DNA of 64,000 bases from assembly GCF_045037415.1 (NCBI RefSeq), contig NZ_CP173440.1. The stretch is one strand, 5' to 3'. The DNA is from Escherichia coli (GTDB lineage: Bacteria > Pseudomonadota > Gammaproteobacteria > Enterobacterales > Enterobacteriaceae). Of this stretch, positions 42,001 to 48,000 are shown piece by piece (within the stretch, counting starts at the first letter, position 1; each line of letters starts with the position of its first letter). The position numbers are program-made.

Positions 42001-45000
42001 GGGTATACTGGATCATCTTCAGGCACCCAATAACCAGACCCGCACTCCCATTCTTCTCCAATGAATACGAACATTTGCCTGGCAAGATATCTCCTGAGTT
42101 CCTGAGAGATTACGCTCTCAATTTTTAACAGGTAACTCTTGTTCTTACAATGGGCTTTTAAGTGAGAAAGAAGTGTACTGAAGCAGCCTTGATTAGTGAT
42201 AAATACAGAAACTGATGAAACAACCAGAACAGGTTTACCCAGCAAAGATGCATGTTTGCTACGTGCACGTATATACATGTTTTCGAACAAGGCCAAGCCA
42301 TCAACATGTCTGGATTTTACTGGTATAATACTTTTATTACTTTCATCCATTAGCCTTTCAAATGTATTGATTATATTTGTAATATCAGCCTCTAATATTT
42401 TTTGATTAATTATCATTGTACTCTGCAACCCCGGTGTTTGTAACATTCTTAACATCACTGATTAAACTAATATCTACAGAATGTGCCAGTGTTGTTAGCT
42501 CGGTAAAGTTAATTTTTTCGTAATAACCATCACTGATTAAGTTTAATAAATTAAAGTCCAGGGCAGGTGGTGGGCAAATGCTTCCAGAAGTGTAAAGATA
42601 CTCAAGCCCACGCGCATCAAATATGCCGTGAGGGGCACCCTCTGATAGTTTTCCACCTGAATATAACTCAACCCATATCCTGAGTCGGTAATCCAGAGTG
42701 AATTCACCTATCTCAATCCAGAAATGTGGATATAACTCAAAATACGTTTTGGGGTTTTTAACTACCCCGCACATTCGTTGATGAGAAATGCCTGCATGAT
42801 TTAGAGCACTGCTTATCATTAATGTATGACCATCGCACTCAACGGGTGCATTCTCAATAGCCTGTAAGAGATTGTTTAACTTCACAAGACAATCGGGCAT
42901 AAGGATATTGGCCATATAAATACCTATTCCGGAATTTCTGAGAGGAATTCATTAAAGAGATTATCATCGTACAGTGGGTATAATTGCTTCATCATACCAA
43001 AACCGGACATAGCTGCACTTCGCAAGTCGGGATAAAAAGTAGGCTTAGTGATAAGATCGCATTCATTCTTCAGCACACCTTCGAAGCAGCCGTAATCTTC
43101 CCCAAACTCCTGAACTATCATCCAACGGCCATCCTTGCATTCAACTACCATAATAGCAGACTTGGGGTAGTCGCCAGCTGGGGTCAACCAATCAAAATGG
43201 TAGTGGGTGATAGTTTGATAACTCTTATGGACATTCATAGCATTAACCCTAATGCAAGACTTACAACGTGAGAGGTTAGTGTCTGATAAAGCACTGTATA
43301 TATATGGGTCTTCCCTTGTTGTGGTGGCTGAAGGCATGATAATGGCGTATTAAATCGCCAGAGGTCACCACCATGGACGAAAAGTCCCTCTATGCACATA
43401 TCCTCAACTTGTCAGCTCCGTGGCAGGTAAAGTCTCTTTCTCTCGATGAAAATGCCGCTTCTGTTACCGTTACTGTCGGAATCGCTGAAAATACTCAGTT
43501 AACCTGTCCAGCCTGCGGGAAATCCTGCCCCGTTCACGATCACCGGCATCGTAAATGGCGCCACCTCGATACCTGCCAGTTCGCCACGATAGTTGAAGCC
43601 AGTGTGCCCCGTGTTATGTGTCCGAAGCATGGATGCCAGACTTTGCCTGTTCCGTGGGCGGGGCCCGGCAGCCGGTATACGCTGCTGTTCGAATCATTCG
43701 TGCTTTCATGGCTGAAAATCAGCACTGTTGATGCGGTCAGGAAACAACTCAAACTGAGCTGGAATGCCGTTGACGGCATTATGACCCGCGCGGTTAAACG
43801 AGGTCTTGCACGCATAAAAAAGCCGTTAGCAGCCCGGCATATGAATGTGGACGAGGTCGCTTTTAAAAAAGGACATCGTTATATAACGGTGATCTCCGAT
43901 CGTGACGGGCGGGCGCTGGCTTTAACGGATGATCGAGGTAAGGAAAGTCTTGCCGGTTACCTCAGAACCCTGACTGACGGACAGCTGCAGGCCATTAAAA
44001 CGCTCTCAATGGACATGAATGCGGGCTATATAAGAGCCGCGCGCATCCACTTACCGTGTGCAGTTGATAAAATCGCCTTTGACCGCTTCCACGTAGCGAA
44101 ACAGCTGGGTGAGGTGGTGGATAAAACCCGCCAGAATGAACATCCCCGTCTTCCGGTTGAAAGCCGCCGTCAGGCCAAAGGTACCCGCTTCCTGTGGCAG
44201 TACAGCGACAAATGGATGACTGAGTCCCGGCAGAAAAAGCTGATGTGGCTGCGGGAACAGATGCAGCAGACAAGCCAGTGCTGGACACTGAAAGAGCTGG
44301 CCAAAAATATCTGGGATCGCCCCTGGAGCACAGAACGCAGGAATGACTGGTTGCAGTGGATATCGCTGGCGTCTCAATGTGATGTGCCGATGATGAAAAA
44401 CGCAGCGAAAACCATCAAAAAACGGTTATATGGAATACTGAATGCGATGCATCATCGTGTCTCGAATGGTAATGCAGAGGCGCTGAACAGCAAGATCAGA
44501 CTGCTGAGAATAAAAGCCAGAGGATACAGGAACCGGGAGCGCTTTAAGCTGGGAGTGATGTTCCACTATGGAAAACTGAATATGGCGTTCTGAGTCTTCC
44601 CACCATGATCGGGGAAGACCCATATATATACAGTCTGGATTTAACATAACGCACATTAAGCGCACTAATGCTGTAATGGCTCAATAGTAATGTCCGCCTG
44701 TGGCTCAATTCAGATGTCCGCGCTATGGTAAGCTTCACTGGTCCGTTTAAACTACCGGGAGGCATATCATGAGCGCAGAAAGCTCAGGAGTGTTTACTTT
44801 GAAAGAGATCAACCGGATCAAGATTATACAGGACGTCATTGAACGTCGCATCACAACGCGCCGTGCGGCCGAGCACCTCGGTATCAGCGACAGGCAATGC
44901 CGCAGACTTCTTGCCCGTTACCGTGAAGGGGGACCGCTTGGTATGGCCAGCAGACGATGTGGCATGCGTGGTAACCGCCAGTTGCCACCCGGGCTCGCAG

Positions 45001-48000
45001 ATCAGGCTCTGGAACTGATCAAGACGCGTTATGCTGATTTCGGTCCGACTCTGGCGCGTGAAAAGCTCGAAGAACTCCACGGACTGTTTCTTGGCAAAGA
45101 AACTGTCCGGCGCATCATGGTGCGGGCTGGCTTATGGGTTCCCCGTAAACAACGTGCCGCAAGGATCCCTCAACCACGGTACCGGCGTCCGTGTACTGGT
45201 GAGCTGATACAAATAGATGGCTGTGATCACGACTGGTTTGAAGGCCGTGGCCCGGCCTGCACCGCGCTGGTCTATGTTGATGATGCAACCAGCAAACTGA
45301 TGGAACTGTTGTTTGTTAAATCGGAGTCCACGTTTTCTTACTTCGAAGCCACGCGGCGCTATATCGATAAGCATGGTAAACCGCTGGCACTGTACAGCGA
45401 TAAAGCCGGTGTTTTTCGTGTTAACAATAAACACGCCACAGGCGGAGACGGGCATACTCAGTTTGGGCGAGCCATGCATGAACTGAACATCCAGACTATC
45501 TGTGCAGAAACCAGTCCCGCCAAAGGGCGTGTAGAACGAGCTCACCTCACTTTACAGGATCGTCTGGTCAAAGAGCTGCGGTTACAGGGCATTGGTTCAA
45601 TGGAGGCTGCAAATGACTTCGCTGAGGCCTATATGGCTGACTATAACCGCCGTTTTGGCAAAGTACCGCGACATGATTTTGACGTACACCGTGCTGTAGA
45701 ACATGATGAGGACCTGGGGCTTATTTTCACTGTTCGTGAAAAACGTAAAGTCTCAAAATCGTTGACGATACAATATGATAAAATGTTGTACCTGATTGAA
45801 GACAGCGAACTGAGTCGCCGTGCAATAGGTAAATATATCGATGTGTATCACTATCCTGATGGCAGAAAAGAGCTGCGCCTGAACGGTACGCTACTTCCCT
45901 ACTCTACCTACGACCGACTGTCAGAAATCGACCAGGGCGCGATTGTCGATAACAAGCGTCTTGGCCGAACCCTGGAGTTTATCAGTCTGGTGCAGAGCAA
46001 GCGGGATAACACGCGCTCTCAGTCAATTCCCGCTGGAGATGGCCCTTCCCGACGACGGCCAAAGCAGGAAGGGAAGAAATCCCAGCGCTCACTGGATAAT
46101 GATGACATGCTCGAAGCACTCAAACAGCTTCAGTCACGTTCAGAGGACATTTTTGGTAAAAGAGCCCGCTGATGGTACTCACTGGCCGGACAGTGGTTGC
46201 TCACCAGTTGATATTGTCCGGCCAGACCCATGATGTATTATTCATTTCGTTCAGCATCTTTATGTCCTGCTTTTCACGGGCATACTTACCCCATAATGAA
46301 TGAAAAGAACGAACAATACTGATTAACTGCTTTTTTCTTTGCTCCGGAGATAAGCTGATAAAATAGCAGCACCTGCTGTCAATATTATCCTCTATGAAAT
46401 TAAAATCAGAGTCTGATGCATATTTTACTGTTAGCATAATATCATTCGACGTTGTTCTCTCAGACTCTGTTAATGCTGATTCTATCAGGTATTCAAAGGC
46501 ATACATGACAGACAACTGGTTTTTGTCTGTCTGAATATAACCCATTGAGTTTCTGAGTATTGAGGACTGTACCAGGACCAGAGGCCATAAAAGCTCAACA
46601 CCATAAAGCTTATATGTATCATGTTGATCATACTGATGTTGCTCAACACGACGATTACCTTCCCGTGCTTTACGAATATCATAGGCAAGGGATAACATAA
46701 ATCCGTCTTTAACTTTAATCAGTGGGCTTTCATCCACGATGTAATGAATGAGTTCATGTAATTCATTCAGGGCTTCTGAATCTCCCCACAGTATAAAACC
46801 TGCATTGTTCGGCGTTAACTCGTATCGAAGCATGGGCTCAATCATCCTGTTGTTTCAGTCGGAGGAAAGTCTATCAGTAAAGAGAATGAGAGATCAAAGT
46901 GGACATTTTAATTGAGCCGGATAACGGACATTTCAATTGAGCTTTGACAAATGCTGTCAGCACAAAGCGTTATTGTCGTCTCAGCACAATTCACACGCGT
47001 CGTGTACGCTAAGCCTTCATTTTGCTCAGCACAGGACCGCGATCTTATATTGGCTAGACAAAGTCTGTAACTCCAATATTCTAATGTCACTTTTGGGGCT
47101 GCGGATGTTTTCCTGGACTGTTATGTTGTGATCCCAAGATGCTGCCGGTACTTCACCGGACTCATTGCACCTAATGATAGTAGACTGGCCCCATGAATCT
47201 CCAGACAGTTGGTATAACTTAAGTTAGTGATAGTCTTAATACTAGTTTTTAGACTAGTCGTTGGAGTCCGGATGATTGATGTTTTAGGTCCAGAGAAGCG
47301 CAGACGGCGCAGTGTTCAGGAAAAAATCGCCATTGTTCAGCAGAGCTTTGAACCCGGTATGACCGTCTCGCTGGTCGCCCGGCAGCATGGTGTTGCCGCC
47401 AGTCAGCTGTTCCTGTGGCGCAAGCAGTATCAGGAAGGCAGTCTTACCGCCGTTGCCGCGGGTGAACAGGTTGTGCCCGCGTCGGAACTGGCATCGGCAA
47501 TGAAGCAAATTAAAGAACTGCAGCGCCTGCTGGGCAAGAAAACTATGGAAAACGAGCTGCTGAAAGAAGCCGTTGAATATGGCCGCCAAAAAAAGTGGAT
47601 AGCGCACGTGCCCTTGTTGCCGGAGGATGGCGAATAAGCCTTGTCAGCCGTTGCCTCCGGGTCTCACGTGCGCAACTGCATGCCATGGCTCGTCGGTCGA
47701 AGAGCTGGCAGGATCGTCGACGCAAGCGCAAGCCTGATGATACTGAAGCGCTGGACCGTATCCAAACCGTTATTGGCGAGCTGCCAACGTATGGTTATCG
47801 TCGGGTGTGGGCACTGCTGCGCAGACAATCAGAAACTGACGACATGGCCATTATCAATGCCAAACGCGTATACCGCATCATGCGTCAGAATGCGCTGCTG
47901 CTTGAGCGTAAACCTGCAATACCGCCCTCGAAACGGGCGCATACAGGGAAAGTGGCTGTAGGGGAAAGTAACCAGCGGTGGTGCTCTGACGGCTTCGAGT

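Follow-up and report, generated by a model that had tools for sequence, protein, structure and literature searches.

The 64,000-nucleotide stretch of Escherichia coli contig NZ_CP173440.1 (assembly GCF_045037415.1) analyzed here, hereafter the window, contains at 44672-46949 a copy of the insertion sequence (IS) ISKpn21. The unit holds only two open reading frames (ORFs), one of 467 amino acids (aa) on the plus strand, which encodes the transposase, and a convergent one of 214 aa on the minus strand, the passenger, which encodes a protein of the DUF6904 family. The element sits beside a dif-like XerCD recombination site (xrs), and remnants of related IS follow on its right. The original prediction, made from the sequence, had described an IS with a passenger ORF bounded by terminal and subterminal repeats, and this description was borne out. 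Relative to its limits of 44677-46943, the true ends of the 2278-bp unit lie 5-6 bp further out, at the TGT of 44672 and the ACA of 46949. It had missed the target-site duplication (TSD), the 5-bp AATGC that flanks both ends. Taking identity, boundaries, dif-like target, and family mechanism jointly, we are highly confident that 44672-46949 is an intact ISKpn21.

ISKpn21 and its doubled ends

Several lines of evidence identify the element; its specific name has indirect support, from the labels of identical copies and from published ISfinder values. At the DNA level, the window copy was 100% identical to Klebsiella plasmid copies among the matches listed, and 1357 plasmid records and 61 E. coli records had a match. 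Identical copies carry the RefSeq/PGAP labels 'ISNCY-like element ISKpn21 family transposase' and 'DUF6904 family protein'. When a longer DNA query was compared with E. coli, matches H96-99, H101, and H108 aligned over exactly 44672-46949. For ISKpn21, ISfinder gives a length of 2278 bp, a TSD of 5 bp, and a transposase of 467 aa (Table 7 in PMC10132070); these values are exactly those of the window element, which also shares with ISKpn21 the TGT and ACA ends, the passenger ORF, and the position 5 bp from the XerC side of its target. ISKpn21 belongs to the IS1202 family (formerly ISNCY; the ISNCY/IS1202 group) and within it to the ISAba32/ISAjo2 subgroup, and it is a 'transporter IS' (tISKpn21). 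Features expected of members of this subgroup are present: a single transposase ORF of 400-500 aa, imperfect terminal inverted repeats (TIRs) of ∼25 bp running from TGT to ACA, and inner TIR copies. Nothing contradicts the identification.

The doubled repeats stand out in the window. The core motif GGACAT-N4-ATTGAGC has exactly four matches in the 64 kb, two per end and inverted (44679-44695 and 44703-44719 on the minus strand, 46901-46917 and 46926-46942 on the plus strand), against a chance expectation of 0.07 matches; none of 100 shuffles reached four. The two left-end repeats mirrored by two inverted right-end copies, as first described, are real; the spacer within the repeat needed correction, from 5 nt to 4 nt (GGCTCAAT-AGTA-ATGTCCGC and GGCTCAAT-TCAG-ATGTCCGC). 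The doubled motif is retained in sister elements from Pantoea (L008) and Buttiauxella (L031), whose transposases are only 85-88% identical to that of ISKpn21. A second internal TIR copy is known in ISAjo2/ISAba32 elements and has been likened to the TnsB sites of Tn7 (PMC10132070), and the ISKpn21 transposase may likewise bind two sites per end.

The transposase matched the NCBIfam model NF033594 (transpos_ISNCY_2) with 494 bits (cut-off 250; E 2.9e-148), and Pfam recognized only its N-terminal helix-turn-helix (HTH) domains. Judged from sequence motifs, D150, D211, and E256 are candidate catalytic residues. Membership of the IS481 family (NF033577, 101 bits, below the cut-off of 224) and of the IS3 family (NCBIfam IS3 model, 27.7 bits, below 160) was rejected, and the protein also stayed below the NCBIfam cut-offs for IS630 and IS21. 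The IS481 and IS3 families have related HTH and DDE transposases, and IS3 elements also form circle intermediates with a junction promoter; unlike ISKpn21, these families do not target dif. Closer relatives are the pdif-targeting ISAjo2 and ISAba32 of Acinetobacter, which share with ISKpn21 the transposase family (with only 44% identity between the transposases of ISKpn21 and ISAjo2; Table 7 in PMC10132070), the TGT...ACA ends, the internal TIR-core copies, the 5-bp TSD, and the oriented insertion at the XerC arm, but are ∼1.5 kb long and have no passenger. Tn7-like transposons resemble ISKpn21 in their TGT/ACA termini, in the several transposase-binding repeats per end (presumed in ISKpn21), in the 5-bp TSD, and in inserting a set distance away from a conserved 'safe' site. 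This is resemblance, not membership: ISKpn21 has one transposase gene and lacks TnsA, TnsC, and TnsD/TniQ, neither ORF of the 2278-bp unit matches the TnsA, TnsB, TnsC, TnsD, or TniQ families, and ISKpn21 is reported to use circular copy-out-paste-in transposition, whereas Tn7-like elements move by cut-and-paste.

Circles of ISKpn21 with ends 5 bp apart have been detected, and an IS3-like two-step transposition has been proposed (Hudson et al. 2014, PMC4048246); a circle-junction promoter has also been described for the element (10.1101/2022.12.17.520857). The window sequence is compatible with this literature, according to which the element would move by copy-out-paste-in via a circle in which 5 bp separate the two ends. 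In such a circle, the TTGACA at the tip of the right terminal inverted repeat (IRR) and a -10-like hexamer of the left one (IRL) could form a transient transposase promoter.

Table 1. Coordinates of ISKpn21, its target, and adjoining IS remnants in the window
Feature	Position	Strand	Remarks
dif-like XerCD recombination site (xrs)	44639-44666	-	target of ISKpn21
XerD arm of xrs, TTATGTTAAAT	44639-44649	-	minus-strand reading
Spacer of xrs, TGTGCG	44650-44655	-	minus-strand reading
XerC arm of xrs, AGTGCGCTTAA	44656-44666	-	minus-strand reading
Left TSD, AATGC	44667-44671	.	single copy in pLVPK
ISKpn21, complete	44672-46949	+	2278 bp, TGT...ACA; several E. coli copies align over exactly these coordinates
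IRL, TGTAATGGCTCAATAGTAATGTCCG	44672-44696	+	25 nt, 80% complementary to 46925-46949
Inner (subterminal) IRL-core copy, TGGCTCAATTCAGATGTCCGCG	44701-44722	+	presumed second transposase-binding site
Transposase, 467 aa, N-terminal HTH and DDE-type core	44769-46172	+	NCBIfam NF033594; Pfam HTH_23, HTH_28, HTH_32
Perfect 11-bp inverted repeat, CTGGCCGGACA / TGTCCGGCCAG, 22-nt loop	46182-46225	.	between the convergent genes, overlaps passenger 3' end/stop region
Passenger gene, DUF6904 protein	46201-46833	-	210 aa from ATG 46833; ORF to 46845, 214 aa
Candidate extended -10 of passenger, TGATAGACT	46868-46876	-	just internal to right-end repeats
Inner (subterminal) right-end repeat copy, GTGGACATTTTAATTGAGCC	46899-46918	+	repeat pairs, conserved in relatives
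IRR, CGGACATTTCAATTGAGCTTTGACA	46925-46949	+	tip is a perfect outward-facing -35 hexamer, TTGACA
Right TSD, AATGC	46950-46954	.	single copy in pLVPK
Left-end remnant of a different IS1202-family IS, not ISKpn21	46955-47053	+	99 bp, 98/99 identity to L045 3000-3098
Left tip of a third IS1202-family member, TGTAACTCCAATATTCTAATGTCAC	47066-47093		intact in L046 and L041

An Xer site of probable repeated use

Five base pairs separate the left end of ISKpn21 from the XerC arm of the xrs, which on the plus strand reads ATTTAACATAA-CGCACA-TTAAGCGCACT and stands directly left of the TSD; the pattern GCGCNTAA-N6-TTATGTTAAAT has this site as its single match in the window. In plasmid pLVPK (NC_005249.1), the site is empty and reads …ATTTAACATAA CGTACA TTAAGCGCACT AATGC TGTCAGCACAAAGCG…, with one AATGC. 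A published ISKpn21 target, on the HI1B plasmid CP079726, has a TSD of GCATT, the C arm AGTGCGCTTAA, and the D arm TTATGTTAAAT (Table 8 in PMC10132070). The spacer, TGTGCG in the window and TGTACG in that entry and in pLVPK, is one base apart, and nothing material differs between the window copy and published ISKpn21. The element, assigned to the ISAba32 subgroup, is known from chromosomal dif and plasmid xrs, including tandem arrays (10.1101/2022.12.17.520857).

For a comparison of copies, eight E. coli loci were extracted; together with the window they cover seven different insertion sites: the window itself, the E. coli chromosomal dif beside hipA (in two versions), an mph(E) pdif module, two plasmid dif-like sites, and one tandem site. 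The five other single insertions have perfect 5-bp TSDs (AATAT, GCTTG, ACGTG, AAGAT, and AATAT) and an IS left end likewise 5 bp from the XerC arm, including at the dif beside hipA; at the seventh site (L043), the element abuts another IS and has no TSD. The same xrs geometry was seen in L036, L037, L040, and L041, and in L042 only the XerC arm and the spacer were recognizable. In most E. coli copies, the sequence shared with the window begins exactly at the xrs. In the sister elements of Pantoea and Buttiauxella, too, a dif-like site is 5 bp away, the TSDs being TTGAT/TTGAT and AATAT/AAGAT. The window copy agrees with the ISAba32 subgroup both in its TSD (5-6 bp in the subgroup) and in its oriented insertion with the IRL 5-6 bp from the XerC arm, and the transposase probably picks the XerC side of Xer sites, be it chromosomal dif or a plasmid dif-like site.

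The copies at all seven sites are 2278 bp long and include the passenger, and six of the seven have a perfect TSD; a search for copies with identical ends and duplications, proposed in the original prediction, was thus productive. That prediction would have fallen with element ends elsewhere that exclude the passenger ORF, and all complete copies examined contain it. From the uniform length of the complete copies, the TSDs at six of the seven sites, and the empty pLVPK site, we conclude that the whole 2278-bp unit including the passenger transposes. A passenger outside the mobile unit is excluded by the alignment boundaries, the TSD-flanked copies, and the empty site.

Other IS have probably used the xrs as well. 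The original prediction had noted further TCAGCACA repeats just outside the element, and three copies are present within 46957-47033, 24 and 45 bp apart; they belong to a different, older IS. Indeed, the 99 bp that begin directly after the right TSD are nearly identical to the left end of an IS on plasmid pG747 (L045), where the sequence opens with TGT, exactly 5 bp away from a further dif-like site (ATTTAACATAA AACGCA TTACGCGAACC) and continues into an IS1202-type transposase gene (product start MTDKELYRLGIIQRVFERALL…). Given this 98/99 match, the TCAGCACA copies can be assigned to a second IS, an older one, as its terminal and subterminal repeats, and the same match rules them out as Xer accessory sequences or iterons. 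In E. coli plasmid NZ_CP020059.1, ISKpn21 is directly followed by a complete copy of the second IS. In the sequence as it stood before ISKpn21 arrived, exactly 5 bp separate the initial TGT of the remnant from the XerC arm, which argues for an earlier targeted insertion at the same xrs. The tip of a third family member lies further right (Table 1). This stack fits the published pattern in which IS insert one after another at a single xrs and the nearest copy is the last to arrive (10.1101/2022.12.17.520857); the other family members would have used the same xrs earlier, and ISKpn21, closest to the site, would have come last. Neither the name ISKpn21 nor the dif-like targeting nor the origin of the TCAGCACA repeats in a second IS was part of the original prediction.

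Additional observations concern the surroundings of these sites. Beyond the third tip, the 87 bp at 47094-47180 are preceded in plasmid L046 by an ISKpn21-like left tip instead, a mosaic arrangement, and the left end of an IS2-like element (IS3 family) begins at ∼47181. In L045 (4498-4896) and in E. coli matches H202-H209, the second IS (IS-X) is followed by a 132-aa HTH ORF that resembles a transposase N-terminus and could be either IS-X's own passenger or a fragment of a further family member. The xrs is also the breakpoint relative to pLVPK (window 44622-44666 versus L044 3440-3500). Left of it, pLVPK has a DUF1778/GNAT toxin-antitoxin module, whereas in the window 17 bp of differing sequence separate the site from the ISL3-family element ISCfr12 (ORF 43373-44593); Xer-mediated module exchange or an unrelated rearrangement could account for this. 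Two E. coli chromosomes (L036 and L043) have a site-specific integrase gene on the XerD side of the ISKpn21-occupied dif beside hipA, which may mark a dif-integrated element, and in L043 an ISLad2-family IS stands directly after ISKpn21 as a tandem targeted insertion. In the whole window, TCAGCACA occurs 10 times, always on the plus strand (8595, 19133, 23255, 27611, 34451, 43070, 46957, 46981, 47026, and 63539), against 2.3 expected on both strands combined. Three of the ten are explained by the IS remnant, and the strand bias of the other seven may come from gene orientation or codon usage.

The passenger gene

The 214-aa ORF that had been described opposite the transposase is present (46201-46845, minus strand), but its product is probably 210 aa long and starts at the second ATG (46833), on which the RefSeq annotation and the starts of homologues agree. 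The gene is AT-rich, as had been stated, with 38.9% GC compared to 51.9% for the transposase gene. The profile search suggested for it identified Pfam family DUF6904 (PF21845) with E 8e-48 and 163.7 bits (cut-off 27), residues 6-214 aligning over model positions 1-238, and the RefSeq entry is WP_001567369.1, 'DUF6904 family protein'. An exhaustive homologue search yielded 364 clusters, mostly of 205-220 aa and 27-43% identical to the passenger, and the AlphaFold2 model has a predicted local distance difference test score (pLDDT) of 96.4. Compared with the sister IS, ISKpn21 has 85-88% identity in the transposase and 63-68% in the passenger. Synonymous sites of the passenger are saturated (pS 0.71-0.84) with a pN of ∼0.2, and the dN/dS ratio is ∼0.11 in the sole pair for which it was calculable. 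Because synonymous sites are saturated and dN/dS is low across sister IS, we conclude that the passenger is functional and maintained. Its amino-acid sequence evolves ∼2.5-3 times faster than that of the transposase.

The intact sister IS of Pantoea and Buttiauxella have the same convergent arrangement of transposase and passenger genes. All homologues of >60% identity that we examined are tied to ISKpn21-like ends or remnants; in decayed copies from Klebsiella/Raoultella and Salmonella, the IS end motif still lies 70-85 bp upstream, and the Salmonella copy also retains transposase fragments. These data leave next to no room for the 214-aa ORF being a chance ORF or decayed remnant in a mobile unit made up of the transposase and its own ends only. 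Its AT-rich composition, unlike that of the transposase gene, and the lack of a known function could be read that way, but the Pfam match, the 364 homologue clusters, the confident fold model, and the purifying selection speak against it, as does the presence of the passenger within the TSD-flanked 2278-bp unit in every complete copy examined. The family match, fold model, selection, and whole-unit copies already refute this reading, and the passenger is a true, selected part of the element.

As to expression, TGnTAGACT or TGnTAGTCT stands at the same position upstream of the passenger in the window, Pantoea, and Buttiauxella elements and is a putative passenger promoter, as judged from sequence conservation. 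A generic sigma-70 scan of the end regions found no convincing promoter for transposase or passenger and did not call this candidate -10. The perfect inverted repeat between the two convergent genes is possibly a transcription barrier; a terminator scan made no call there.

More distant homologues (27-45% identity) have no IS1202-type transposase nearby and stand alone in varied mobile-element and defence-type contexts. A neighbour survey based on a five-sequence sub-alignment gave 13 loci, and clustering of the neighbouring ORFs revealed no conserved partner. Single loci have suggestive neighbours. In L015 (52-1757), a JetD_C (Wadjet JetD-like) gene ends 12 nt before the start of a homologue of 43% identity; this adjacency, in L015 and L013, is found on short metagenomic contigs that end before any upstream jetABC could be seen. 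On Agrobacterium and Rhizobium plasmids, a homologue lies between a VapBC pair and integrases, and others adjoin SRAP, ligase, and UmuDC genes, or an ABC-3C gene, an AAA_15 ATPase, HipA, or a group II intron. In several genera, tssA (ImpA_N/VasL), a type VI secretion gene, is closely followed by DUF6904 genes or fragments (L001, Tatumella; L011/L012, Salmonella; L033/L034, Citrobacter and a Chryseobacterium-labelled assembly). At the Salmonella locus stands a decayed ISKpn21-like element of ∼4 kb. Its end motifs lie at 4917-4933 and 8877-8893, and besides transposase fragments it holds ∼1.7 kb of additional small ORFs. A link of the passenger to type VI secretion was set aside, the Salmonella locus being a decayed ISKpn21-like copy.

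What the passenger may do

Searches for a function of the passenger returned none, whether against NCBIfam, PADLOC, and PHROGs, against the PDB by sequence and then by profile, or in the full-text literature on DUF6904, PF21845, and WP_001567369. Pfam and PADLOC scans of 87 DUF6904 family members gave no clue, with no PADLOC match among them, and longer family members checked for domain fusions were not informative. The structural model had no detectable relative among solved and viral structures, and no DNA-binding or nuclease-like fold was detected.

By analogy with its relatives, we lean slightly toward the passenger being autonomous cargo, dispensable for transposition and targeting alike. 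This is favored over a transposition factor because passenger-less members of the subgroup target xrs in the same manner (10.1101/2022.12.17.520857; PMC10132070), and other IS1202-family members carry unrelated passengers (10.1101/2022.12.17.520857). The solitary distant homologues, which have no conserved neighbour, also point to cargo. As cargo, the passenger may benefit the carrier replicon or host in a conflict or maintenance role. Some points count against our account of the element and its passenger. The cargo view draws on context and on analogy with passenger-less relatives; the position and orientation of the passenger beside the right-end repeats are fixed across diverged sister elements, which fits a role tied to the element; and, for the proposed junction promoter, the best -10-like hexamer that the IRL offers, AGTAAT at 19-bp spacing, is only moderate.

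We consider it unlikely that the passenger is an element-specific accessory factor, one that either regulates or inhibits the transposase or else acts at the right end or the Xer-bound target. In favor of such a factor, the convergent arrangement persists in ISKpn21, Pantoea, and Buttiauxella despite 32-37% protein divergence, a putative promoter beside the right-end repeats could couple transposase binding to passenger expression, and the examined homologues of >60% identity are tied to ISKpn21-like ends or remnants. However, passenger-less subgroup members show the same 5-bp TSD and XerC-side targeting, the passengers of other family members are unrelated genes, the distant homologues persist in varied contexts away from any IS1202-type transposase, and the fold searches found nothing that resembles a DNA-binding or nuclease protein. 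A more specific version of the cargo view, to which we give somewhat less credence still, makes the passenger a conflict-system gene, for example an anti-defence factor directed against Wadjet or an orphan immunity or defence protein. The homologue 12 nt after a JetD_C gene, the homologues adjoining ABC-3C, AAA_15, HipA, and VapBC genes and integrases, the faster amino-acid change relative to the transposase, and the matches in 1357-1395 plasmid records, mostly of conjugative plasmids, are all consistent with this. Against it, neither the passenger nor the 87 family members matched PADLOC or PHROGs, the loci share no conserved neighbour, a single set of short metagenomic contigs is the source of the JetD adjacency, and the only match in a phage collection is a 3.4-kb record that resembles the IS itself. 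Autonomous cargo stays our preferred reading of the passenger.

ISKpn21, its passenger gene, the doubled end repeats, the targeting of dif and dif-like sites, and the circular intermediates have all been published, and the present analysis adds little on ISKpn21 itself. It corrects the annotation of this virulence-plasmid region and provides a clean worked example, with the empty site in pLVPK, the filled site in the window, and a stack of older family members at one Xer site. The remaining interest lies in the DUF6904 passenger, which is under purifying selection on a very successful IS of clinical Klebsiella and Enterobacterales plasmids. If it were a conflict gene, protection of plasmids would help explain the spread of ISKpn21 on >1300 enterobacterial plasmids. 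It is a long shot that DUF6904 represents a new plasmid-protecting or anti-defence factor, for example against Wadjet-type restriction, or a modulator of Xer recombination at the occupied site; if so, the IS would be a vehicle for a plasmid-fitness gene.

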